From Enterobacter phage KKP_3711: DNA of 64,000 bases. Position 1 is the first letter of the stretch; every line of letters starts with the position of its first letter. The stretch lies in the sequence record PP579741.1; one strand, written 5' to 3'. Below are positions 5,390 to 35,133 of the stretch, piece after piece. The notes beneath the pieces are model-generated. The model was not told the origin of the DNA. It worked only from the letters and a program-made list of their open reading frames with translations, and ran no database searches. A program made the position numbers and the translations under genes.

Positions 5390-6088
5390 ATGCAACAAAT
5401 CACTAATATTAATCTGTGGGATTTAGATGGTACAGTAATCAATTCCGCGCACCGTGTTTTACCTCTGCTGGATAGTGATGGTAATTTAGATCTAAATCGC
5501 TATCGTAATGAGGCCTGCAAACATGAATTAATTATTCAAGATTCATTGTTGCCACTGGTTGAATTAATGCGCCGCCAGATGTCAGCGCCTAATACAATCA
5601 ACTATATTATCACCGCTCGCGCCATGTCCAAGTCTGATTATTATTTCCTGCGTAAACAGGGATTGAGAGGTCGCAACGGTGACAATATCCAAGTATTTAG
5701 CCGTGATACTATTCATAAGTTTGCGCCGTTGGAATCGGTGAAACATATTTACAACTCTCGTGACGCTGATTATAAAGCGTTTTATTTTGATCATATTATC
5801 CGCTTACATGGTCGTGATAACGTTAATTATACTATGTATGATGATCATAAGGGTGTGCTAGAAAAGGCGCGTGAATATGGATTCAACGCCATAGACGCCA
5901 CGCAATTAAACGAGATGTTAACAATCGGCATTCAGTTAGCAAGCGAACAATTTCTGGAGGAAACTATTTCCGATGATTTAGATATTGATTATTTAAATCA
6001 AAGGTTGTCGTTTGCATGGCAACAATTAACAGAAGAAGAACAGGATTATTATTCTGTTAAGTATCCTAAACTAGCTCAGGCAGTTTAA
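5390..6088 (+). CDS. dmp: 5'-deoxyribonucleotidase, HAD superfamily (dmp-like)
   Basis: N-terminal DLDGTV (the HAD DxDGT motif) and AAGGAGAG SD. Size and position match the T5 pre-early dmp. Confidence 0.7.
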   Translation: MQQITNINLWDLDGTVINSAHRVLPLLDSDGNLDLNRYRNEACKHELIIQDSLLPLVELMRRQMSAPNTINYIITARAMSKSDYYFLRKQGLRGRNGDNIQVFSRDTIHKFAPLESVKHIYNSRDADYKAFYFDHIIRLHGRDNVNYTMYDDHKGVLEKAREYGFNAIDATQLNEMLTIGIQLASEQFLEETISDDLDIDYLNQRLSFAWQQLTEEEQDYYSVKYPKLAQAV

Positions 6089-6096
6089 TATAAGTT

Positions 6097-6134
6097 AGCT
6101 AACCATTCCACTTCGAATGGTTAGCTTTTTAATT
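6097..6134 (+). terminator. rho-independent terminator closing the pre-early operon
   Basis: AGCTAACCATTC-cacttc-GAATGGTTAGCT followed by TTTTTAATT, 9 nt after the dmp stop. Confidence 0.75.
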
Positions 6135-6281: not shown

Positions 6282-6356
6282 CATAGGAAAGTTACATATG
6301 CATAGGAAAGTTACATATGCATAGAAAAGTTACATATGCATAGAAAAGTTACCCAC
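6282..6356. repeat. 19-bp direct tandem repeat, about 3.8 copies (CATAGRAAAGTTACATATG)
   Basis: Copies at 6282-6300, 6301-6319 and 6320-6338, with a partial copy at 6339-6353. Each carries a CATATGCATAG palindromic core. Confidence 0.85.
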
Positions 6357-6469: not shown

Positions 6470-6868
6470 TTATAAATATGTAATTACACGAGGTTCTGTT
6501 AAAGAGAAAGAAACTAATACTGCAATATCATCCTCTTTAATATCGTAATCATCACGGAATACTAAGCCACCATCTTCAATAACCATTTTCCATGATTGGC
6601 CTGTAAACCTTTCGAGTCTATTACGAAGAATACCCGCAGCCTCAGAATCTAAATTATGAATCTGATCATACATATCAGACAGACTAAATGGATCCGCCGG
6701 CTTGGTTTTCAAATATAAGTCTAGTAATTTCCAGCATCTGTGATTAATATCCAGACAACTAGAACTATTCCATACTAACCAGCGATAAAATAATTGTAAC
6801 ATTATAACCACCCTAGCATAAAGAGAATCATTACTACTACAAAAATTAAGAAGATTAAAGTTCCGCAT
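6470..6868 (-). CDS. hypothetical protein, divergent from the pb5 gene (positional analogue of llp, but no lipoprotein signal)
   Basis: 132-aa ORF. Frame checked upstream: stop with no alternative start. No lipobox or signal peptide seen. Confidence 0.3.
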   Translation of the reverse strand: MRNFNLLNFCSSNDSLYARVVIMLQLFYRWLVWNSSSCLDINHRCWKLLDLYLKTKPADPFSLSDMYDQIHNLDSEAAGILRNRLERFTGQSWKMVIEDGGLVFRDDYDIKEDDIAVLVSFSLTEPRVITYL

Positions 6869-7020
6869 CCAAAACTATTAATCCATGAATCGTATACTTC
6901 TCCGCGTCTCATTGGCAATACCTTTTGTGAAGTTTAAAAATTAGTTTTACATTTTCTTCTATTTATTTTATAATTATAATATATTTTAGGTAACTTAGCA
7001 AATAAAATTTAGGAGAGATT

Positions 7021-9069
7021 ATGAGCTTTTTTGCAGGAAGAATTGGTACAAAAACAGTTCTATCCCTCAACAGTGCCAGTGGAGGCGATATAAATGTCCA
7101 TCTTAACCCTAATACCAATACTATTTTCCATAGTGATATGCCATATGTCATAATCCAAGAACAATATTCCGCTAATCTTGGCGCCGTAGGTTCTGACTAT
7201 TATGTGTGTGATATGCCAGCTGCGGTAGCAAACTATGTAAGTAACACTAGCAGAATATTGATTCCTATGTTAACTGTTAATTATGGTGGCGTGGAATATA
7301 ATACTATTCTAGGTGGCGGCTCTATGTCTCTAGGTAACTGTACTGCGGGAGGTACCGAACTAAACCTAGGTACGACAATGGCAACTGCTGAGTGCGGCGC
7401 TCAGCTACGTAATATTTGGGGTTTTTCAAACGACGTTGTTTGGGATACAGGTTACTATACTAAAAGTAGTAGTTTATCTGATGTATTAAGTATTGGTCAA
7501 GGTACTGGTAGAAGTATTGATATAATGAGTGCTAGTCTTTATTACGCTGCTACTTACAGTACAGGCGGAGGTGGTATAGGTATTCCTCCAATTCCAGATT
7601 TAGATCAGTCATACCTATATTTAGCTAGTGGTGCTATCTACAGTGGTAGAATTCCTTCCGTGGACCAAGATGGTAGACTTAGATGGGCTGATGAAGATAG
7701 ACAATATAATACAAAGATAGGTTCTGTTACTCGTACTATTGCTATTAATAGCCACTTCCAAACTCCAACAGGTAGAAGCTTAGGTCATTCTAAATTCTAT
7801 GTTCGCAGAGGTATTGCTGCTCTAGTAAAAGCTTGGCGTGTTAGGTATAACCAAGGAGCAGGTACAGGAGAAACTTTAGTACAAAGATACACTAATAGTT
7901 TTTATGCTCAGTCTGGTGATCGTATAGATGAAGTATGGCAGCGTACTAGTTTCCATTCTAATACCAGTACTGTTATCGCTCCAGATACTACAGGTACTTA
8001 TCTAAACGTAGATTATAAAGCTAGCCTGTATAATATGGTAACGCCTGTCAGAATGACTTGGTTTGTAACTAATGTTACATATAATGAGTCAGCAGGTACT
8101 TATTCTGCTAGTAATCCCTTTACTGTAAATAATGACATTAGATTGTCTCCTTCTGATTTTATTATTAAAGGTGTTAATTTAGGAACTACTGCATGGAGTT
8201 TCTTAATGCAACTTTCTGCTGGTGCCCTTTATAACGCTAATGGCCGTGTTGTGATGGGAGCTAATGGTAGTAGAAGTACTGCCAAGAATGGTAGTTCAGC
8301 AGCAGCTATTCCTATTCCTTACATGTCTGGGACTACCGAAAGATTTATAGGCGGAGATACTACGGATGGTTGGCAGTTACATAAATTAGCATTGTATCAA
8401 TTCAATAGAAATAGACAATGGAAAGTAGATACTAGATCTAATTCAATTAGTAATGCAGAAGGTGATGTATGGAGTCCCGGAGTTAATCCATTAAAAATAT
8501 TTGCTGGTAATAGTTCGGTGGTTAACGTAGGAGGTAATACATTAAACTCCAATACAGGGGAAGTATTATTGACTACCGTTAACTTAGGTATGAATACTAA
8601 TGTACGAGCAGGTTCGGTAATTTGTTCCGTTCAGCTAAGGGATGCCACAGTATTTACATCTGGGGGCTATGGGTCTTTTGTAATATGTTCTCCTAGACCA
8701 GGAAATCCAGAATCTTTGGGACTATCTGCTAGTACTTCTAGAATGAGGACTTCGGGAGGTATTGGTGCAGTACACCATCATTTGTTCTGTACACTTCCTG
8801 TTGGTAGATTTGTGCCTGTTTATGCTATAAGAACCGCTGGATATAACTTTGTGTTAACTCCGTCTTTCCAGCCGCTATGGTTTACCCCTAGTAATGTTCA
8901 AATGAGTAATAGAACTCTAGAATGTTCTTTCATAATTTATTTGAAAAATGAAGGTAATGGTAACGTAGGTATTTATTGTGGTACTGGTCGTAACGCAGAT
9001 GCCGCGGCTATGGGTAACTTCTCTTTCATTTTACCAAACTTACGTATTTCTGTACAGCGTCTCACTTAA
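7021..9069 (+). CDS. oad: receptor-binding tail protein pb5-like (oad)
   Basis: 682 aa. The N-terminus MSFFAG...GGD..H.NP...TIFHSDM and C-terminal ...QRLT resemble my recollection of T5 pb5. AGGAGAG SD. Confidence 0.7.
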   Translation: MSFFAGRIGTKTVLSLNSASGGDINVHLNPNTNTIFHSDMPYVIIQEQYSANLGAVGSDYYVCDMPAAVANYVSNTSRILIPMLTVNYGGVEYNTILGGGSMSLGNCTAGGTELNLGTTMATAECGAQLRNIWGFSNDVVWDTGYYTKSSSLSDVLSIGQGTGRSIDIMSASLYYAATYSTGGGGIGIPPIPDLDQSYLYLASGAIYSGRIPSVDQDGRLRWADEDRQYNTKIGSVTRTIAINSHFQTPTGRSLGHSKFYVRRGIAALVKAWRVRYNQGAGTGETLVQRYTNSFYAQSGDRIDEVWQRTSFHSNTSTVIAPDTTGTYLNVDYKASLYNMVTPVRMTWFVTNVTYNESAGTYSASNPFTVNNDIRLSPSDFIIKGVNLGTTAWSFLMQLSAGALYNANGRVVMGANGSRSTAKNGSSAAAIPIPYMSGTTERFIGGDTTDGWQLHKLALYQFNRNRQWKVDTRSNSISNAEGDVWSPGVNPLKIFAGNSSVVNVGGNTLNSNTGEVLLTTVNLGMNTNVRAGSVICSVQLRDATVFTSGGYGSFVICSPRPGNPESLGLSASTSRMRTSGGIGAVHHHLFCTLPVGRFVPVYAIRTAGYNFVLTPSFQPLWFTPSNVQMSNRTLECSFIIYLKNEGNGNVGIYCGTGRNADAAAMGNFSFILPNLRISVQRLT

Positions 9070-9079
9070 GGAGAAATTA

Positions 9080-9562
9080 ATGAGCACAGATGTATTAGTA
9101 CCAGAAGAAATGTCACCTGAAGGTATGCGTGTCGTTGAGGCCTACCTTGATTGTGGCTCTGATATCACCCAAGTAGGAGATTACTTGGGTATGCCTCAGG
9201 AAACGGTTATGGCAATCTATAATCGTCCTGAAGTTAAACATTATATTACCACTCTTTTTATGGAGAGTGGTTTCCGTAATCGAGATAAGTTCTTTGGGGT
9301 TATGGATGAAATTGTTAAGAAAAAGCTAGAAGATTTAGAAGAATCCGAATTAGGTTCTGATGCAGATATTCTTGAGATTATGAAAGTATACCATAAAATG
9401 AAGATGGATGAAATGGCTATGCAAATCAAACTACTAGAAGCTCAGACTAAGGTAAGAACACCAACTACTCAAACTAATATTCAGAATAACTTCAATCTTC
9501 CAGGGTCGGATGATGGCAACTATATGGCGCTTATGAATCGACTTTCAGGAGCTAGAAAGTAA
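9080..9562 (+). CDS. putative terminase small subunit / DNA-binding protein
   Basis: ATG at 9080 with AAGGAGA SD (in frame within listed ORF 8978..9562). Lies immediately upstream of, and is translationally coupled (ATGA overlap) to, the large terminase. Confidence 0.45.
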   Translation: MSTDVLVPEEMSPEGMRVVEAYLDCGSDITQVGDYLGMPQETVMAIYNRPEVKHYITTLFMESGFRNRDKFFGVMDEIVKKKLEDLEESELGSDADILEIMKVYHKMKMDEMAMQIKLLEAQTKVRTPTTQTNIQNNFNLPGSDDGNYMALMNRLSGARK

Positions 9563-10881
9563 TGAAGGTATCTCGTGATTATTTGAACTGTACAGAACTG
9601 CTACAGTTTCCCGTAGAGGATAGATTTTTTGCTCTTCAAGTAGAAAGTTTACTAGAAACTGAAGGTATTATACCTAATGGGCCTCAGATTGCTATTGTTA
9701 ATGCCATTAATGACCCTAGACATCGTTTCGTAACTGCTTGTGTGTCACGACGTGTTGGTAAATCATTCATCGCTTATACTCTAGGATTCTTAAAGCTGCT
9801 AGAGCCAAATGTTAAAGTTCTGGTAGTAGCTCCAAACTACTCTCTAGCAAACATTGGATGGACTCAGATTAAAGGTCTGGTTCGTAAATATGGGCTTGAG
9901 ACTATTAAAGAGAACGCCAAAGATAAGGAGCTAGAACTTTCTAATGGTTCTTTATTTAAACTGGCATCTGCCGGTCAAGCGGACTCCGCAGTTGGTCGTT
10001 CTTATGACTTTATCATATTTGACGAAGCAGCTATCTCTTCTAAAGGTGGAGATGCCTTCGAAATTCAGTTACGTCCTACACTAGATAAGCCTAACTCTAA
10101 GGCTCTGTTTATCTCTACTCCTCGTGGTGCTAACTGGTTTAAAGAGTTCTATGAGCGTGGATTCAGTCCAGATCCTATGTTGTCTAAGTGGGTATCTATC
10201 CATGGTACATATAAAGATAACCCTCGCGTATCTGAAGCCGATATTGAGGAAGCTAAGAAAACTGTTACTAATGCATACTTCCGTCAGGAATATGAGGCAG
10301 ACTTCTCAGTATTCGAAGGTCAGATCTTCGAAGAGTTCGATGCTAAGATTCATGTTAGAGACTTTAGCAGAGAGAAAGAATTCTTTGCTAGTAATGAATT
10401 TGAAAATATTCTTGGTATTGACGTAGGTTATCGTGACCCAACAGCAGTACTAACGGTGAAGTATCATTATGATGATGATATTTACTACGTTATGGAAGAA
10501 TATGAAGAGAAGGAAAAGACTACTAGTGAGCATGCTGCTTATATTCACACTGTTGAAGAGAAATACGAAATTGATCGTATCTTCGTAGATGCTGCTGCGG
10601 CGCAGTTCCGTAATGACTTAGCTTATGAGCATGATATTGCATCTGCACCTGCTAAGAAATCAGTGCTTGATGGTCTAGCACTTCTACAAACTCTATTCCA
10701 TCAGAACAAAATTATTGTTAGTACAGAATGTCCAAGACTTATACATGCTCTAGCAAACTATAAGTGGGACTTCGATGAGACTAGTGATAAGTTAGTGAAA
10801 GAGAAGCCATTACACGATGGTAACTCACACTTATGTGATGCTCTCCGCTATGCAATTTATTCTATCCAAAGGGGTAAATAA
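9562..10881 (+). CDS. terL: terminase large subunit
   Basis: 439 aa. Walker A (CVSRRVGKS), Walker B (IFDEAA) and a C-terminal nuclease-like region. Size matches T5 TerL. Confidence 0.85.
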   Translation: MKVSRDYLNCTELLQFPVEDRFFALQVESLLETEGIIPNGPQIAIVNAINDPRHRFVTACVSRRVGKSFIAYTLGFLKLLEPNVKVLVVAPNYSLANIGWTQIKGLVRKYGLETIKENAKDKELELSNGSLFKLASAGQADSAVGRSYDFIIFDEAAISSKGGDAFEIQLRPTLDKPNSKALFISTPRGANWFKEFYERGFSPDPMLSKWVSIHGTYKDNPRVSEADIEEAKKTVTNAYFRQEYEADFSVFEGQIFEEFDAKIHVRDFSREKEFFASNEFENILGIDVGYRDPTAVLTVKYHYDDDIYYVMEEYEEKEKTTSEHAAYIHTVEEKYEIDRIFVDAAAAQFRNDLAYEHDIASAPAKKSVLDGLALLQTLFHQNKIIVSTECPRLIHALANYKWDFDETSDKLVKEKPLHDGNSHLCDALRYAIYSIQRGK

Positions 10882-27417: not shown

Positions 27418-29550
27418 ATGATTTCTAATACCGCTCCTGCCAAGATGGTGCTGCAATCCGCAGTCGCTGGATATACGATGATCTTCTTCCAGCACTCCAT
27501 CTTTACAGATCCTGACGTATATGATAGATCTTTCTGGATTACTACAGGAAGCACAACGGTACGTAGGGATTATACAGATGTGTCTAAATTTACTATAACT
27601 CTTCTGGGTCTCTTAGCTGAGACCCAGTATAGTGTTCAAGGTGCATTCGTAGATAGTATTATAGATGAACAACTATTAGCTGCAAAATTCTCTTTAAACC
27701 TTTCTGATGTTGCAACGGTTAAAACAATTAAAAGACCAAAAATACTAACTGCAACATCCACTGCTCAACCTGTTGACGTGGGCGTAGGTTCTCCTGTAGT
27801 AGTTATTACTACAGAAGGAGATGGAGATTTTTGTACAATTGAATTACAAAAAGTAGGAGAGACTACTTGGACTATTGCTTACCAAGGTCCTCTTCTTCCA
27901 ACCATCCAATTTGGTGGTGTACCAATTGGAGATTATAAAGTAAGGATCTCAGGTCAAGTATCTATGCCAGACGGTGTTACTATTGATACCTCTGGAGTTG
28001 CACAATTTGCAGGTACTTTGACTGTTGCGTATAATTTCGTACCACCTTCTGCACCTACAGGTATCACCTTCAAAGTTGCGAATGTTAAGGATGGTAAGGA
28101 AAGATATGATTTACGTGTAGGATGGACGTGGACTAAAGGTAATGGGGCAAACGTTAGAGAATTCGTTCTAGAATATGTAGATTCTGCTGCATTTGCTGCA
28201 TCTGGGTGGACTAAATCTCAAAAGATAAACGTAGGCTCAGCTAAAGAAGCGACACTATTCTCCTTCCCGTTCAATGTGGAACATAAATTCCGAGTTACTG
28301 CTATTGCTTGGGGTCCAGCTACTCAAGATGCTACTCCTAGTGCTGTAGCAACATTTAGAATTACAGAATCTACTCCGATAGACAATAGCTTTATAAATGA
28401 AACTGGTATTGATGTAAACTACGCATATATTATGGGTAAGTTGAAAGACGGAACAGCTTGGAAACAAACTTTCCTTCTAGATGCTAAAACTGGTGCCGTT
28501 GCTATTGGTTTACTAGGTTCAGATGGTAGAGCTCCTATATCTTTTGATCCAGTTCAAAGAATTGTAAACGTTGACGGTAGAGTTATTACTAAAATAATCA
28601 ACGCCGCAAGTTTTGTATTAACTAACTTAACAGGTCAAGATAACCCAGCATTATATACTCAGGGTAAAGCATATGGTGATAATAACTCCGGTGTTTGGAT
28701 TGGTATGGATAATGCCACTGCTAAACCAAAAGTAGATATAGGTGGTCCTACTCAGTATATTAGATTTGATGGTACTACATTAAGGATTGCTGGTCAAGTA
28801 GTAATTGGGACGCCTACTGGTGATATTTCCTTAACGGAAGGTGTACAGGGTAAACAAACAGTATTTATCTATATATTAGGTACATCTATTCCTGCGAAGC
28901 CCACATCTTCAGCATATCCACCTCCAGGCTGGTCGAAATTACCTCCTAATAGAACTAATGCTACTCAGAATATTTATTCTTGTACAGGTCAAATAGATCC
29001 TGTAACTAATACATTGTTATCTGGTACAGGTTGGTCAGATCCGGTGCAGTGGAGTGGTACTGAAGGTTCAGATGGGGCTCCTGGTTCTCCGGGTGCACCA
29101 GGGGCAACAGGCCCACAAGGTCCACAAGGACCACAAGGGCCGGCAGGTTCTAATGGTGCTGCAGGTGCTCGTGGCCCTGGGTTCTACGCGCAATCTATTG
29201 CGGGCTTAACAGCATTTAATACTACTCAAGCAAACTCATACTTCCAATCACTGTTTGGTACTGGACCTACACGTTATGATGTACTGACTCAGTATAACTC
29301 TAGTAACCCTGCAACTGCGTTTACTAGACAGTGGAATGGTTCTTCATGGATTGCTCCTGCTTTAGTAGTTCATGGTGATATGGTTGTTAATGGTACTATT
29401 ACAGCACAAAAAATTGTTGCTAACTATGCTTTCTTTGCACAGTTAGGTGTAGATGTAATCTATAACAGGGCTGCTGCGCTAAGCACAAACCCAGAGAGTT
29501 CCTATACAATGAAAATTGATTTAGCAAACTCTTACATACATATACGATGA
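27418..29550 (+). CDS. central tail fibre protein (pb4-like) with collagen-like repeat
   Basis: 710 aa. A G-X-Y x12 tract GAPGSPGAPGATGPQGPQGPQGPAGSNGAAGARGPG lies at about nt 29065-29180. Confidence 0.7.
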   Translation: MISNTAPAKMVLQSAVAGYTMIFFQHSIFTDPDVYDRSFWITTGSTTVRRDYTDVSKFTITLLGLLAETQYSVQGAFVDSIIDEQLLAAKFSLNLSDVATVKTIKRPKILTATSTAQPVDVGVGSPVVVITTEGDGDFCTIELQKVGETTWTIAYQGPLLPTIQFGGVPIGDYKVRISGQVSMPDGVTIDTSGVAQFAGTLTVAYNFVPPSAPTGITFKVANVKDGKERYDLRVGWTWTKGNGANVREFVLEYVDSAAFAASGWTKSQKINVGSAKEATLFSFPFNVEHKFRVTAIAWGPATQDATPSAVATFRITESTPIDNSFINETGIDVNYAYIMGKLKDGTAWKQTFLLDAKTGAVAIGLLGSDGRAPISFDPVQRIVNVDGRVITKIINAASFVLTNLTGQDNPALYTQGKAYGDNNSGVWIGMDNATAKPKVDIGGPTQYIRFDGTTLRIAGQVVIGTPTGDISLTEGVQGKQTVFIYILGTSIPAKPTSSAYPPPGWSKLPPNRTNATQNIYSCTGQIDPVTNTLLSGTGWSDPVQWSGTEGSDGAPGSPGAPGATGPQGPQGPQGPAGSNGAAGARGPGFYAQSIAGLTAFNTTQANSYFQSLFGTGPTRYDVLTQYNSSNPATAFTRQWNGSSWIAPALVVHGDMVVNGTITAQKIVANYAFFAQLGVDVIYNRAAALSTNPESSYTMKIDLANSYIHIR

Positions 29551-29960
29551 GCATAGAGAATAAAATGGTTGACCTTAGCGTGGAGGCCAATATCCCTTAC
29601 GGTTTATTAATGCAGTTTGAGGATGTTGAAACGCTACTTGATTCTGAGAATATTGTTCCTATTAACTTAACAGGATCTACTTTCAAAGGAGCTATCAAAG
29701 CTTCCTTAGATCCGGGAGCAGCTCTGTTGGAAACTTTTACCATCACAGTTGTAGACGCTGCTAGTGGGGTAGTTGCGGTAAGCTTATCCAAAACTCAAAC
29801 AGCTAATCTTACTACTAAAGCATCTAAGATAAGAGACAAGTATAATCCTAGGTTGCGTTTTGTTGGTTACTATGATATTATAATGACTAAGACAAGTAGT
29901 AATACTAACTTTAGAGTACTTGAAGGTAAAGTATATATTAGTGATGGAGTGACAACCTAA
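29547..29960 (+). CDS. collar / tail protein (p132-like)
   Basis: 137 aa between the pb4 and fibre genes. Confidence 0.45.
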   Translation: MSIENKMVDLSVEANIPYGLLMQFEDVETLLDSENIVPINLTGSTFKGAIKASLDPGAALLETFTITVVDAASGVVAVSLSKTQTANLTTKASKIRDKYNPRLRFVGYYDIIMTKTSSNTNFRVLEGKVYISDGVTT

Positions 29961-32900
29961 TGGCAACAACTACTCGTATAGTAATCCAGCAAGCTGTAAA
30001 CTTAGATAAAAATAATCTTACAGCTGGTAAGTATCCAAGATTCGTTGTGAGTCTTGGTTCTTCCATTACTGGTGTTACTATCAATGATTTAACAAACGCT
30101 ATTCAGGAAACAGCAGATAACGCAGCGGCTGCCGCTGCTTCTGCTACTGCTGCAAAAGCGTCTCAAGATGCTGCAAAAATTTCTGAGAATAATGCTCTAG
30201 CATCTCAGAATGCTGCTAAAGCATCACAAACTGCGGCTAAAACGTCAGAAACAAATGCTAAGACTTCCGAGACTAACGCTAAAAATTCTGAAACTGCTGC
30301 AAAAACTGCTCAAACTGCTGCGGAACTAGCTGAAACAAACGCTGAGACTGCGGAAAGAAATGCTGCTGAAAGTGCTCGTTTAGCTAAAATATCCGAAACT
30401 AATGCTGCAAACTCTGCTTCAGCTGCTGCTATTTCTGCAACTAACTCTTTTAACTCAGCAACACAATCTGCAACTTCAGCTACTAACTCTAAGAACTCTG
30501 CTGATGCTGCTGCTGCATCCGCTACTGCTGCTGCTAATAGTGCAACAAAAGCTGCTACTTCTGAAGATGAAGCTGCTGACCACGTAGTAGATGCTGCTGC
30601 CGAAGCTGATAGAGCTAAAGCAGAAGCTGATCGTGCACAATCCGTTGTTGATGCTGCTCTAGATGCTGAAGATATTGCGGGGTTCTATAAATCTTACAAG
30701 ACTAAAGCTGAGGCTGATGCTGACGTTGCTAACCGTGTTGTTGATGAAGTAGTTCAGGTTTGGAATCAGACAGCTGCACAATATGGCTGGTATAAAGTAA
30801 TTTCAACAAACGGAACTAAATCTTTACAATTGGTTGAAACAGAGAATAAACTTATATCTGTTAATAACATTAAAGCAGACACTAATGGTAACGTACAGGT
30901 AACTATTCCTGGTGGTAATCCATCTCTGTGGCTTGGTGAAGTTACTCTGTTCCCATATAGAAGCACTGATACCGTTGGTTACTCTGGTATCCTTCTAGCG
31001 GATGGTCGTTTACTTAACCGTGCAGATTATCCAGATTTATGGGCTTCTATTTCTGCTGGACTTATTCCTTCAGTTTCAGAAACTGAATGGCAAGCTGGTC
31101 AAAATCAGTTCTACTCTACAGGTAATGGAACAACGACTTTCCGTTTACCTAATATGCTTCAAGGTCAGGCTCTTCGTTCAGCCACAGCTGGTGAAACTGG
31201 CACTGGTGCCATTAAGGCTCAGATCCCTTACATCACTACAGTTAACGGCAAAGCTCCTGCCGATGCTACCGGTGCTATAACATTAGCAATTGGCGATGTA
31301 GTATCTGGTGGTATTATCCCTATAGCTAATGGTGGTACAGGAGCTAATACTGCGGCAAATGCTAGAACTAATCTAGGGGTAGATCGTTTTTCTCAAGGTA
31401 GTACTGTTACTTATATTTACAGTGCAAATAACTCCCATACTGTACAGGTAGCTGACAATGGTTTGTGGGGATGCTACAAACAAGGAACTGGTTGGAATGC
31501 TTTAGGTATAGCCCAAGGCGGTACAGGAGCTCTTAATGCTGCTGATGCTAGAGTTAATCTAATTTTAGATAGACTTGTACAAACTTCAGCTAGTACAAAC
31601 TTAAACTTCCCTACAAAAAATGCTGCATTAGTTCTTAGAGATTCAGATCTTGCTTGGGGTGTTTTTGATAATAGTGCAAATGCTTGGCAAGCTCTAGGCA
31701 TTGGACAGGGCGGTACTGGTGGCAGAACTTCTTTAGAAGCACTAAATAATCTTGGTATTCCTGGTATTGGTAAAAGTTTTGGAGATGATGCTCCACTAAA
31801 TGCTAACTCAATAGCTATTAACGGTATTTTTGCAGGTGCAGGTGTTAATGGAGTTAACTGGGGACAGCAATATTCTCCTTTATTACATATGGTTAGATTT
31901 GCAGGTGGTGCATCAGGCCAGATGCAGATTACTGGAGATGGTTATGTTTGGTTCCGTGGTAGTGCTAATGGTACTTCATGGACTGCTTGGAAATTAGCAC
32001 TTCTAACCGGAGATTATGGTGTTGGACTTTCTGGTGAGTCTTTACCAGGATCTGATTGGGGTAGTAGATTCATATCTACATCTAATGCTAGTTCTGACTG
32101 GACTCCAGCAAACGGTGCAGGTTTCCAAAGTTCTTATGCAAACAATCGTTCTGCTCAGCTGTGGATGAATACCTCTGGAGAATTATACGGACGTTTTAAT
32201 ATGTCTACCTCTCCACAAGCTACAAAAGCTGCATCTCCTTGGAAACGCTATTTAAATGAGTCCGATGTCTCTAATTTCTTTAGATCTGGTGGTAGTATTG
32301 GTACTGGCTCCCTTAATGTATTAAGAGGGGACTTATCTGGTGTTTATCTGCAAAGTATGAATGCTAATGCTACTCCTGCTTTAGGTTATTCCCCAAATAT
32401 GCAAGCCGGTAGTTTACTAGTTCTTCAAAATGGCGCCAATGGTGCATATGGTGCTACACAGCTATATTTCAACTATTTAGGCTCTGGCGGGCTATTCTTC
32501 CGTAGATTATTAGCGTCTGATGGTGGTGCTGTAGAACCCGGCGGTAACGGAGCTGGCTGGAGAGAAATTTGCTCTAATAATGGTGATGTTTGTGGAGGAA
32601 GCACTCCAACTATCACAGATTGGAATAGTTTTATACCTAACCATACTGGTTTTGGTTATGGAGGAGGTACTACAAACTCTCCTGGAACAAATGGTATAGT
32701 CAGAACAGATAGTAATCATAGATTTTATGAGTATAAGTCCCAGATAGCTCACGATTATGCTACCGGTAGAATGTTTATTAGAACATTCAATGCGGACTCT
32801 GTTAAAACTTGGACTGCTTGGAAAGAAGTTACAACTACTGCTGCTTCTGATGAAAACCTAAAAGAAATAAAAGGTGATTTAAACGTTGAAGGTGCATTAG

Positions 32901-33205
32901 ACAATATAAACAGAATGGACTTCAAACTGTTTAGATTCTTAGATGATGAACCTGATCGTAGTGCAAGACGAGGAGTTATCTCTCAGCAAATCAGACTGAT
33001 TGATAAAGAGTATACTAGAAAAGTAGGCGAATATTGGCACCTTGACCAAACTCCTATGCTTCTAGATGGTCTGGCAGCTATCAAAGCCCTGAGAGCTAGA
33101 GACGTAGAGAACAAAGAGAGAATCTCTAATTTAGAAAGTGAATTAGATGCATTAAAATCTCTAGTTCAATCTTTACTTCCAAAAGAAGAGGAGACTTCTG
33201 AATAA
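29960..33205 (+). CDS. L-shaped tail fibre protein LtfA-like with C-terminal intramolecular chaperone (peptidase S74-type) domain
   Basis: 1081 aa. The N-terminus has Ala/Ser/Thr-rich coiled-coil repeats (ETNAKTSETNAKNSETAAKTAQ). The C-terminal about 120 aa (DENLKEIKGDLNVEGALDNINRMDFKLFRF...ISNLESELDALKSL) matches the auto-cleaving chaperone of phage fibres and endosialidases. Confidence 0.75.
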   Translation: MATTTRIVIQQAVNLDKNNLTAGKYPRFVVSLGSSITGVTINDLTNAIQETADNAAAAAASATAAKASQDAAKISENNALASQNAAKASQTAAKTSETNAKTSETNAKNSETAAKTAQTAAELAETNAETAERNAAESARLAKISETNAANSASAAAISATNSFNSATQSATSATNSKNSADAAAASATAAANSATKAATSEDEAADHVVDAAAEADRAKAEADRAQSVVDAALDAEDIAGFYKSYKTKAEADADVANRVVDEVVQVWNQTAAQYGWYKVISTNGTKSLQLVETENKLISVNNIKADTNGNVQVTIPGGNPSLWLGEVTLFPYRSTDTVGYSGILLADGRLLNRADYPDLWASISAGLIPSVSETEWQAGQNQFYSTGNGTTTFRLPNMLQGQALRSATAGETGTGAIKAQIPYITTVNGKAPADATGAITLAIGDVVSGGIIPIANGGTGANTAANARTNLGVDRFSQGSTVTYIYSANNSHTVQVADNGLWGCYKQGTGWNALGIAQGGTGALNAADARVNLILDRLVQTSASTNLNFPTKNAALVLRDSDLAWGVFDNSANAWQALGIGQGGTGGRTSLEALNNLGIPGIGKSFGDDAPLNANSIAINGIFAGAGVNGVNWGQQYSPLLHMVRFAGGASGQMQITGDGYVWFRGSANGTSWTAWKLALLTGDYGVGLSGESLPGSDWGSRFISTSNASSDWTPANGAGFQSSYANNRSAQLWMNTSGELYGRFNMSTSPQATKAASPWKRYLNESDVSNFFRSGGSIGTGSLNVLRGDLSGVYLQSMNANATPALGYSPNMQAGSLLVLQNGANGAYGATQLYFNYLGSGGLFFRRLLASDGGAVEPGGNGAGWREICSNNGDVCGGSTPTITDWNSFIPNHTGFGYGGGTTNSPGTNGIVRTDSNHRFYEYKSQIAHDYATGRMFIRTFNADSVKTWTAWKEVTTTAASDENLKEIKGDLNVEGALDNINRMDFKLFRFLDDEPDRSARRGVISQQIRLIDKEYTRKVGEYWHLDQTPMLLDGLAAIKALRARDVENKERISNLESELDALKSLVQSLLPKEEETSE

Positions 33206-35133
33206 TGGCACGTAATTTTATGCCACAAAGTGGGGCGCTTGCGCCCTACGTTGTTGTTAATAGAGACGCCGCTGTGGCCGGCGTTTTCTCTGTTGACGGA
33301 CTGAGAGGTTCGGTAGACTTAACTACTAAATATCTAACAATTGCAAACTTTAATGCTTATAAAACCACGACCGATGGTTCTATCTCTAGTATCAATCAGT
33401 CAATTACTGCTTTAAATACTGCTGTAAGTAATAAAGCAGCTAAAGGTGCTAATAGCGATATTACTTCTATTACTGGACTTACCACTGCATTAGGTATCGC
33501 TTATGGTGGTACTGGTGGTAAAACAGCGGCTGAAGCTAGAACTAATCTAGGATTAACCACCGCTGCCACTACCTCTATTGGTACTGATGGTGCTCGTATA
33601 CCTTTGCTTAATGGAGTGAATACCTGGGCAACTAATCAAACTTTTAGTGGTACGCAAACAATATTCTCTAACATTAATCCTGGTGGTATAGAGATTGGTA
33701 GTTACGGAACGGCAGGAGTGGCGTATATTGACTTACATAGTTCTGGTACGGGTAATGACTATGATGTTCGTATACGATCAGATGGGGGTAATAATACGGC
33801 GGGTAGAGGTACATTATCTATAGCTGCTGATTTAGTAAAACTTCCAGCATTAGAATTAACTTCTCCTTTAGGTATCGCTTATGGTGGTACAGGGGCAGTT
33901 AGTGCAGAAGGTGCCAGAACTAATCTAGGTTTAGGAACTAATGCAAACGCTGTATTTAGTAATTTATCTGTACCTAACGGGATATATATTACAACTTCTG
34001 ATAGTGGTTCAAACCCTTCTGCACCTATAGTGGCTAAGATAATGGCTGCCAATGGTACCGACACTTTAGGTCAAGCAGAATTTAGAGCCGATAGGAATGG
34101 TAATCTATCTCTTATTAATAGAACGGATCCTTCTAGGCCTCAATTCATGACATTAGATACTACCGGTATGCTATCTGCTCCTGCATTCCAAGCTAGTGGC
34201 ACAAGCAGGCTTAGTAGTTTAGAAGTAGGTATAACTACACCTAATACTGCATCTTTTATAGATTGGCACTATAGTGGTAGCTACGATTATGATTTTCGTA
34301 TATTATGTAGTTCTTCTGGATCTGGTATAGGTAAAGGTGCTGTTAATTTTTATGGTGGAGTTTACACCTTTGCTGGGGATTCTTTCATATTTAATAACCC
34401 TATCACTTCCCAAAATACTATTACAGCAGAAGGAGAACTTAGAGGAGCTTCAGTAAGAACTACTTCTGGCACCGCGCTTCGTTCTGGTACCTCTAATGGT
34501 TGTTATGCGTCTGTTAGTGCAGAATCTGGATATGTATTATTGTGGAGACGAAATGATCCTGGTACTAAATCAGATGAATTTTTAGGTATAAGAAATACTG
34601 GTGATGCTATTTTCCGTCAATCAACAGGTGCTTCTACTTATGTTGATAGAATTATCTGGCACCAGGGAAATACAACTGTAGATGCTAACGGTTTTATTAA
34701 AAGAGCTTCTCCTATTGTTAAGATCTTCAATGATGATTTCTCTGTAAATGAAGAATCAGAAGGTTGTACAGTAACTCATGTTGAGACTGGAGTATACAGA
34801 ATAAACGGATGTCTAGGTCTTTCTGCTGACTTAGCTTGGGGTGGTGTGAATGGTGGTATTGAAGTTCCTAAGGATATCAATGGTCAGCCATTACTATGGG
34901 TAGATTATAAGGTAGATAGTGAAGGTACTATTATTCTTAAAACTTATCATAGAGAACACCCTGAGTCTCCTGCTTTTGCACAGAATAAGCGTGAAGGATA
35001 CTCAAATGGAGATCCTATCGATATTCCATTTGATGTTTTCGTTTCTGTTCGTGTGGAAATGCCAGAAGATTCCAAATACAATCTTTGGAAACAGCAAGAA
35101 GCTAAGCTTAATGCTGAGTCTGAAGAAGAGTAA
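33205..35133 (+). CDS. second L-shaped tail fibre protein (LtfB-like)
   Basis: 642 aa, Gly/Thr/Ser-rich fibre-like composition. TAATG overlap with the upstream fibre gene. A two-gene Ltf arrangement is recalled from DT57C-like phages. Confidence 0.55.
   Translation: MARNFMPQSGALAPYVVVNRDAAVAGVFSVDGLRGSVDLTTKYLTIANFNAYKTTTDGSISSINQSITALNTAVSNKAAKGANSDITSITGLTTALGIAYGGTGGKTAAEARTNLGLTTAATTSIGTDGARIPLLNGVNTWATNQTFSGTQTIFSNINPGGIEIGSYGTAGVAYIDLHSSGTGNDYDVRIRSDGGNNTAGRGTLSIAADLVKLPALELTSPLGIAYGGTGAVSAEGARTNLGLGTNANAVFSNLSVPNGIYITTSDSGSNPSAPIVAKIMAANGTDTLGQAEFRADRNGNLSLINRTDPSRPQFMTLDTTGMLSAPAFQASGTSRLSSLEVGITTPNTASFIDWHYSGSYDYDFRILCSSSGSGIGKGAVNFYGGVYTFAGDSFIFNNPITSQNTITAEGELRGASVRTTSGTALRSGTSNGCYASVSAESGYVLLWRRNDPGTKSDEFLGIRNTGDAIFRQSTGASTYVDRIIWHQGNTTVDANGFIKRASPIVKIFNDDFSVNEESEGCTVTHVETGVYRINGCLGLSADLAWGGVNGGIEVPKDINGQPLLWVDYKVDSEGTIILKTYHREHPESPAFAQNKREGYSNGDPIDIPFDVFVSVRVEMPEDSKYNLWKQQEAKLNAESEEE

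Follow-up and report, generated by a model that had tools for sequence, protein, structure and literature searches.

The 64,000-nucleotide stretch of DNA from Enterobacter phage KKP_3711 analysed here (sequence record PP579741.1; referred to below as the window) contains, at positions 7021..9069 on the + strand, an intact open reading frame (ORF) that begins with ATG and encodes a protein of 682 amino acids. The protein is an exact match to XAG95850.1 from KKP_3711, which is labelled 'hypothetical protein' in GenBank/NCBI. The original prediction for this ORF was of a receptor-binding protein (RBP) resembling pb5 of phage T5, and our analysis arrives at the same identification: sequence matches, a predicted fold, gene position and a conserved pb4 partner gene all agree, and support its description as an oad-like gene encoding a pb5-family receptor-binding tail-tip protein. 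KKP_3711 is a published phage that has been proposed for food biocontrol. It was isolated on Enterobacter cloacae KKP 3684 (PMC11172527), has a T5-like genome of 113,711 bp and, as the species Kononvirus KKP3711, has been placed by ICTV in a new genus within the Markadamsvirinae, the T5-like phages (PMC12451628). Neither the original report on the phage nor later papers mention a receptor or the gene at 7021..9069.

The oad-like gene and its neighbours

The full length of the protein (residues 1-682) aligns with positions 1-650 of the 650-position profile of PHROG 4815, 'receptor binding tail protein' (E 2.3e-100), and phmmer matches it to T5 pb5 in the PDB (8b14_B, 8a8c_B) through a two-part alignment, covering residues 1-163 and 340-682, at E 1.5e-53. 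Values of this order exclude chance similarity. Pfam PF26860 (Phage_T5_RBP5) is precomputed for the exact protein XAG95850.1; a local Pfam-A scan, which used a copy older than PF26860, found no family. An AlphaFold2 (AF2) model built from a 31-sequence alignment has a pLDDT (the local confidence score of the model) of 69.5 and a pTM (predicted template modelling score) of 0.77. When this model was compared with the PDB using Foldseek, only 8b14_B (E 2e-31) and 8a8c_B (E 3e-28) were matched, with template modelling (TM) scores of 0.70-0.73 (the best, 0.73, being normalised to the target), and all matches besides these T5 pb5 chains were at E 0.05 or worse.

A filter-only HMMER search that covered 1.84 billion cluster representatives returned 24 clusters, 17 of them at E <= 1e-30, which indicates that the pb5 family is small and closed. 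The clusters examined further proved to be pb5 genes located beside terS, with several long weak hits lying outside that set, and among the matches examined there was no non-pb5 protein carrying a pb5 variable body. The gene found no megablast match among 50,697 phage records, a collection that lacks KKP_3711 and in which the closest allele is too divergent as DNA.

The gene order around the ORF is dmp (5390-6088), a set of small leftward membrane-protein genes, pb5 (7021-9069), the small terminase subunit gene terS (9080..9562, +; PHROG 3802, E 2.7e-68, full length), terL (9562-10881), a nicking-endonuclease-like gene and the portal gene. The same layout, with pb5 immediately ahead of terS and terL where the pre-early/terminal-repeat region ends, is common to T5, BF23, Gostya9, EH1 and S131. 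An AGGAG ribosome-binding site lies at 7011-7015 (+), 5 nt ahead of the pb5 ATG, and the 100-bp AT-rich spacer upstream of the gene contains two promoter-like sequences of the sigma-70 kind: a strong one for pb5 (TTTACA-17-TATAAT, 6946-6974, +), identified by an 11/12 consensus match only, and a divergent one for the leftward small-protein genes (TTGCTA-17-TATAAT, 6973..7001, -; 10/12 match). Back-to-back oad/llp promoters are annotated at the equivalent place, and with the same layout, in T5.

Two further features of the region can be mentioned. At 6282-6352, with the hairpin of the dmp terminator (6097-6126) on one side and the small leftward genes on the other, there is a tandem repeat with a 19-bp unit (CATAGAAAAGTTACATATG; 3.7 copies, 98% match), in an area that by analogy with T5 would border the terminal repeat. 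None of the related loci has an exact copy of this repeat, and the alignment with one of them, L008, breaks there. NCBI assemblies of Salmonella enterica isolates include contigs of 110-111 kb that encode terminases at least 90% identical to KKP_3711 TerL (EBX7861864.1, EAT0097362.1), and Kononvirus-like phages therefore seem to accompany Salmonella cultures or to infect them.

Conserved and variable parts of the protein

The N-terminus of the KKP_3711 protein (MSFFAGRIGTKTVLSLNSASGGDINVHLNPNTNTIFHSDMPYVII) is identical to the start of T5 pb5 (MSFFAGKLNNKSILSLRRGSGGDTNQHINPDSQTIFHSDMSHVII) at 28 of 45 positions (about 62%), and both proteins end in QRLT, so that the similarity first noted in the opening 40 or so residues and at the C-terminus is borne out. 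So is the difference in length: T5 pb5 is exactly 640 amino acids long, and the KKP_3711 protein is 42 residues longer. The two are 28% identical overall, and the full-length near-identity to T5 pb5 that would have spoken against a divergent body is absent. The picture of a protein that diverges throughout once past its N-terminus holds in part only, however. Identity to all pb5 types is 55-73% in residues 1-60, and in residues 61-339 it is just 14-25% against every pb5 from other clades, with phmmer leaving residues ~164-339 without alignment to T5 pb5, but residues 340-682 align with T5 pb5 306-640 (domain E 2e-35) and include two blocks, 368-388 and 461-489, with 65% and 34% identity, respectively.

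What these blocks might do can be gauged from T5. Cryo-electron microscopy of T5 pb5 has revealed an oblong protein whose distal end inserts four loops into the lumen of FhuA: L1 around Gln115, which contacts the FhuA plug, L2 around Phe170, L3, and L4 (570-590), which inserts into FhuA (PMC9586334). Residues 1-37, 333-352, 365-371 and 427-455 are disordered in the absence of the phage; segments 1-37, 333-352 and 427-455 are assigned to a pb4-binding subdomain, 333-352 being unresolved without pb4 (bioRxiv 10.1101/2022.09.22.509047). Across T5 pb5 homologues the apical half is conserved and the distal half variable, and the distal half of T5 pb5 is poorly predicted by models (bioRxiv 10.1101/2022.09.22.509047).

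We mapped the T5 segments onto the KKP_3711 protein using a MAFFT L-INS-i alignment of 36 family members. Codons 1-37 (7021..7131, +), which would encode the N-terminal strand set of the pb4-docking (apical) subdomain, specify a segment of the same length as T5 1-37 with 59% identity and pLDDT of 84-86; the linker that follows (residues 37-45) is also unchanged in length and is 78% identical to T5 37-45. Codons 368-388 (TVNNDIRLSPSDFIIKGVNLG; 8122..8184, +) form an internal conserved block, likewise predicted to belong to the docking subdomain, that is 65% identical to T5 333-352 and one residue longer. In and near this block F367, T368, I373, S376, F380, I382, K383 and G384 are invariant or near-invariant in the family. 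The third block predicted to take part in docking, codons 461-489 (8401..8487, +), has the same length as T5 427-455, with 34% identity and a family conservation of 0.51; W484 is invariant and F461, I476 and P486 are near-invariant.

The regions aligned with the receptor-contact loops of T5 pb5 look quite different. Codons 101-137 (7321..7431, +), aligned with L1 (Gln115), show 20% identity, seven additional residues and a family conservation of 0.28. Codons 163-221 (7507..7683, +), aligned with L2 (Phe170), are 23% identical and encode 59 residues against 30 in T5, a 29-residue insertion, with pLDDT below 50 from residue 183 on. Codons 611-628 (8851..8904, +), aligned with L4 (570-590), are 6% identical and encode three residues fewer, pLDDT being below 50 at 612-629. 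With seven extra residues in L1 and 29 in L2, the 42 additional residues of the KKP_3711 protein therefore lie mainly in regions aligned to receptor-contact loops. All AF2 segments with pLDDT below 50 (183-251, 273-304, 317-327, 542-582 and 612-629) coincide with the distal half, the half that is likewise poorly predicted in T5 pb5. Conservation thus extends beyond the termini and tracks a discontinuous pb4-docking subdomain, with homology spanning the full length of the protein, and this division into a conserved docking part and a variable receptor part matches the dichotomy published for T5 pb5.

The predicted docking partner of the apical subdomain is also encoded in the window. The pb4 straight-fibre/spike gene lies at 27418..29550 (+), its product aligning over residues 1-710 with T5 pb4 1-688 (7zlv and others; phmmer E = 0), and the alignment is conserved through the C-terminal spike to the last residues (...MKIDL.N.YIHIR). 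Both an apical docking subdomain and a pb4 partner can therefore be recognised from sequence, docking itself being predicted. Compared with T5 pb4, residues ~553-586 of the KKP_3711 protein contain an extra collagen-like Gly-X-Y run (GAPGSPGAPGATGPQGPQGPQGPAGSNGAAGARGPG), which sits just ahead of the C-terminal spike that should carry pb5. After pb4 come two large tail-fibre genes, at 29960-33205 (1081 aa) and 33205-35133 (642 aa). Their arrangement suggests a two-protein lateral fibre like LtfA/LtfB of DT57C, not the single pb1 of T5.

Pairwise ratios of non-synonymous to synonymous substitution (dN/dS) against four lineages are 0.04-0.14, and the pb5 gene is therefore under purifying selection. 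This bears on the idea that the ORF might be a decayed, non-functional pb5 remnant, host recognition falling instead to different tail proteins, for example the pair of lateral fibre proteins (29960-35133). The presence of those two large genes, and the fact that GenBank offers the label 'hypothetical protein' only, could be cited in its favour. We regard it as highly improbable nonetheless: the ORF is unbroken over its full length and has a ribosome-binding site and a promoter-like sequence, the low dN/dS values hold across all four lineages, the docking partner pb4 is conserved, and all 36 invariant family columns are present (although this follows from the way the alignment was constructed). 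Furthermore, the lateral fibres of T5-like phages bind O-antigen and are dispensable, pb5 being the terminal receptor binder (PMC8594841).

Against L008, a Kononvirus relative, pb5 is 77% identical where terL is 99.5% identical, and within the genus pb5 evolves much faster than its neighbours. Synonymous divergence (dS) from L008 is 1.23 in pb5 and 0.51 in terL, and the higher value in pb5 suggests allele exchange. Among five variants that are at least 97% identical there are 27 variable sites, 11 of which fall in the L1, L2 and L4 regions, 17% of the protein by length (binomial p = 0.003): 115, 118, 119 and 120 in the L1 region, 175, 177, 182, 186, 214 and 221 in the L2 region and 618 in the L4 region.

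Cassette exchange and receptor specificity

Direct evidence on the pb5 body comes from a sibling Kononvirus-like metagenomic genome, L015 (SRR16280057). L015 shares 91% identity with KKP_3711 as far as position 7082 and 97% from 9080 on, but between these two points nothing aligns (L015 7062-8971), and the unaligned segment corresponds to pb5 from about codon 21 to the stop. In its place L015 encodes a 657 amino acid pb5 (P0026) with 31% identity to the KKP_3711 protein and 47% to T5 pb5. The right-hand boundary of the cassette is the terS start at 9080, exactly where DNA identity resumes; at the left, the first ~20 codons are common to both phages. Neither has llp. Since the flanks are 91-97% identical and pb5 is replaced, the slot exchanges whole pb5 bodies between otherwise near-identical phages, and this swap is direct support for the pb5 body as a specificity module. 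Its natural junctions, at about codon 21 and the terS start, are practical ones for engineering RBP exchange in T5-like phages.

The view that the pb5 body sets the receptor, put forward in the original prediction, gains support from the cassette swap. The accompanying claim that the gene predicts host range is too strong, as host range in T5-like phages is also gated by the lateral tail fibres and O-antigen (PMC8594841). KKP_3711 plates on five strains of E. cloacae, on one of Pantoea agglomerans and, out of ten E. coli strains, on just one (PMC11172527), a range that also speaks against so simple a prediction, and the influence of the lateral-fibre proteins (29960-35133) on host range is probably as large as that of pb5.

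T5-like phages have been assigned to FhuA, BtuB or FepA by clustering of their RBPs (PMC8594841; PMC12980165), and every T5-like phage typed so far uses one of these three TonB-dependent transporters (PMC8594841). We compared the KKP_3711 protein with typed representatives of each class (T5 and S131 for FhuA, BF23 and EH1 for BtuB, H8 and S124 for FepA) and with a further set comprising Gostya9, HK6, Serratia phage Slocum, Erwinia phage KEY and all HMMER cluster representatives, and placed them in a neighbour-joining tree. The H8 pb5 was found by tblastn in the unannotated draft AC171169 (L019 24699-26612, -). For S124 we used NC_048013; OK108607, 'vB_SenS_S124', was rejected as the FepA-type S124, its allele being BF23-like (BtuB-class).

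This comparison, which included the T5, BF23 and H8 proteins named in the original prediction, gives the KKP_3711 protein no place among the three typed classes. Its own small clade takes in Eos and three metagenomic lineages, P0023 and P0024 among them, at 72-77% identity, and the next closest are two metagenomic types, P0052 and P0053, at 34%. Identity to the FhuA class (T5, S131 and also HK6) is 28-29%, with KKP_3711 in a separate clade and lacking the 77 amino acid Llp. To the BtuB class (BF23, EH1, DT57C-like) it is 30-31%, again with a separate clade and no 88 amino acid lipoprotein, and to the FepA class (H8 and S124), which sits on another branch, 23%. The typed classes are mutually 23-29% identical, and in the tree the KKP_3711/Eos clade stands apart from all three. 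As the clade is about as far from the typed classes as these are from one another, the receptor cannot be read from the sequence. The gene would indicate a different or unassignable specificity but not which receptor is used. In the same tree the Gostya9 RBP (L005 968-2905) groups with the FepA-binding pb5 of H8 and S124, to which it is 55% identical, and this hints that the Gostya9 receptor may be FepA or a related protein.

Two accounts of the specificity of the clade have to be weighed, and we consider them about equally likely. The first is that the receptor is a known one, the Enterobacter/E. coli orthologue of FhuA, BtuB or FepA, contacted via an independently evolved interface, the clade then being a sequence variant only. 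To this we would give slightly less than an even chance. All typed T5-like phages use one of the three transporters, sequence distance alone does not prove a different receptor (the P0026 type, 47% identical to T5 pb5, is also untyped) and a phage that crosses from Enterobacter to Pantoea and one E. coli strain fits a conserved transporter. Against it, the clade is as distant from each typed class as the classes are mutually, the loop-aligned regions are 6-23% identical and differ in length, and there is no FhuA- or BtuB-blocking Llp, which every FhuA-class and BtuB-class genome examined possesses.

The second account, for which our estimate is likewise just short of evens, invokes a receptor new to T5-like phages: another TonB-dependent transporter, or a porin or translocon as in T1-like phages (YncD, TolC, LptD). 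Here the isolation of the clade from all three typed classes, the enlarged L1 and L2 regions and the absence of Llp become points in favour, together with the ~24 clusters at 50% identity in a family for which three receptors are known, and the wider receptor set used by small siphophages (PMC8594841). No particular receptor is positively indicated, however, and in the literature we found no receptor for KKP_3711, Kononvirus or Eos and no T5-like (Markadamsvirinae) phage with a fourth receptor. The narrower proposal, that the KKP_3711/Eos clade uses a receptor other than FhuA, BtuB or FepA and does so without an Llp-type receptor-jamming lipoprotein, is one we put forward tentatively, thinking it somewhat the less probable outcome. 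If true, it would widen the receptor repertoire of the Markadamsvirinae and offer a swappable cassette for retargeting T5-like phages.

The evidence on Llp requires some comment. A 77 amino acid llp lies between oad and the T5.159 gene in T5, S131 and HK6, and a lipoprotein gene occupies the llp position in BF23 and EH1 (88 amino acids) and in L016 (73 amino acids). At the T5/BF23 llp position KKP_3711 has instead a gene for a 36 amino acid single-pass membrane protein (6802..6912, -; PHROG 8596, E 4.5e-14), a T5.159 homologue (MRRGEVYDSWINSFGCGTLIF... compared with ...RRGEVYDSWINSFGLGTILFF in T5.159). We screened upstream ORFs of at least 20-35 amino acids in KKP_3711 and 18 related loci for a lipoprotein signal and lipobox. 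No such ORF was found within 1.5 kb of pb5 in KKP_3711, Eos, P0023, P0024 or P0004, and there is no Llp gene between pb5 and the T5.159 homologue in L001, L005, L008, L009, L012-L015, L019 or L022-L024. Llp is also absent from H8 and S124 (FepA class) and from Gostya9, KEY, Slocum, P0026, P0052 and P0053. We do not count its absence against pb5 function because the FepA-type phages H8 and S124 and several other types lack it, and the suggestion that a phage without Llp must use something other than a TonB-dependent transporter was rejected because of the same two phages. The absence of Llp thus carries little weight in choosing a receptor.

Two other small proteins were considered in this context. 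The 'receptor blocking protein' of S124 (NC_048013) is an acidic non-lipoprotein that also occurs beside the real Llp in EH1; since the two co-occur there, the label looks positional rather than functional. In KKP_3711 the T5.159 homologue is translationally coupled to an ORF of 110 amino acids (6470-6802, -; MLQLFYRWLVWNSSSC...). This ORF is conserved among the Kononvirus relatives L008, L012 and L015 and, with 118 amino acids, in L016; Eos and L009 lack it. With no PHROG match, no signal peptide and a homologue beside a true Llp in L016, it was rejected as a substitute exclusion protein.

A model for the tail tip and its known counterparts

By homology with T5 pb5, we consider it very probable, taking the explanation as a whole, that the gene product is the single-copy RBP of a T5-like siphophage, seated at the tip of its central straight fibre. 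Conserved segments 1-37, 368-388, ~401-406 and 461-489 would fold into a small beta-helical apical subdomain that caps the C-terminal spike of trimeric pb4 (27418-29550). At the opposite end of the elongated beta-sheet protein, long and poorly ordered loops (~101-137, 163-251, 542-582 and 611-629) would enter the extracellular lumen of an outer-membrane beta-barrel receptor, and binding would rigidify pb5 and relay the tail-opening trigger to pb4. What the analysis demonstrates is homology, a similar fold, the pattern of conservation, the partner gene, the swap of the cassette and purifying selection; docking geometry, loop insertion, triggering and the nature of the receptor in this scheme are drawn from T5 by analogy. 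The loops resemble those of the FhuA, BtuB and FepA classes neither in sequence nor in length, and the protein would represent a separate specificity type, one that also occurs in Eos and a small number of metagenomic phages. The gene behaves as a cassette that can be exchanged, its limits being the first ~20 codons of pb5 and the start of terS.

Several points weigh against this scheme. The proposed role in adsorption derives from homology, and the authors who described the phage did not identify the protein. The loops were assigned from a MAFFT alignment at ~20% identity, in exactly the places where AF2 confidence is low, and their boundaries are approximate. The enrichment of variable sites in the loops is suggestive only, as the regions were defined after the alignment had been inspected and five close variants alone were compared. 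Finally, with the canonical companion gene llp absent, one corroborating line of evidence is lost.

For XAG95850.1 the practical outcome is that the 'hypothetical protein' label can be corrected: the protein most likely sets the terminal receptor of KKP_3711. For forecasts of host range and resistance in KKP_3711 and its relatives, the message is that theirs is a pb5 type for which clustering of sequences cannot currently predict the receptor. Understanding of how pb5 proteins work is left unchanged, the protein being a new, receptor-untyped member of a well-understood family, encoded in a genome that has already been published.

The closest well-characterised counterpart is T5 pb5 itself, the FhuA-binding RBP encoded by oad (PDB 8B14, 8A8C), to which the KKP_3711 protein shows full-length homology and a similar predicted fold, differing in the L1, L2 and L4 regions as described above; in T5 the lipoprotein gene llp adjoins oad, whereas KKP_3711 has no adjacent llp. 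The Hrs/pb5 protein of BF23 and its relatives (BtuB) and pb5 of H8 and S124 (FepA) belong to the same family, with the same gene position and conserved termini, but are shorter, at 593-595 amino acids for the BtuB class and 637 for the FepA class. P0026, the L015 protein, is an alternative cassette in the same slot. Nearest of all are Eos67 (QGH45209.1, MN478377), P0023 and P0024, which match the KKP_3711 protein over their full length of 679-681 amino acids; as in KKP_3711, the gene directly upstream is T5.159-like and llp is missing. The annotation of Eos67 is 'hypothetical', in a record that gives neither host nor receptor. At the genus level, Eos and the P0024 lineage are distinct phages, with TerL 74-76% and TerS 50% identical to those of KKP_3711.

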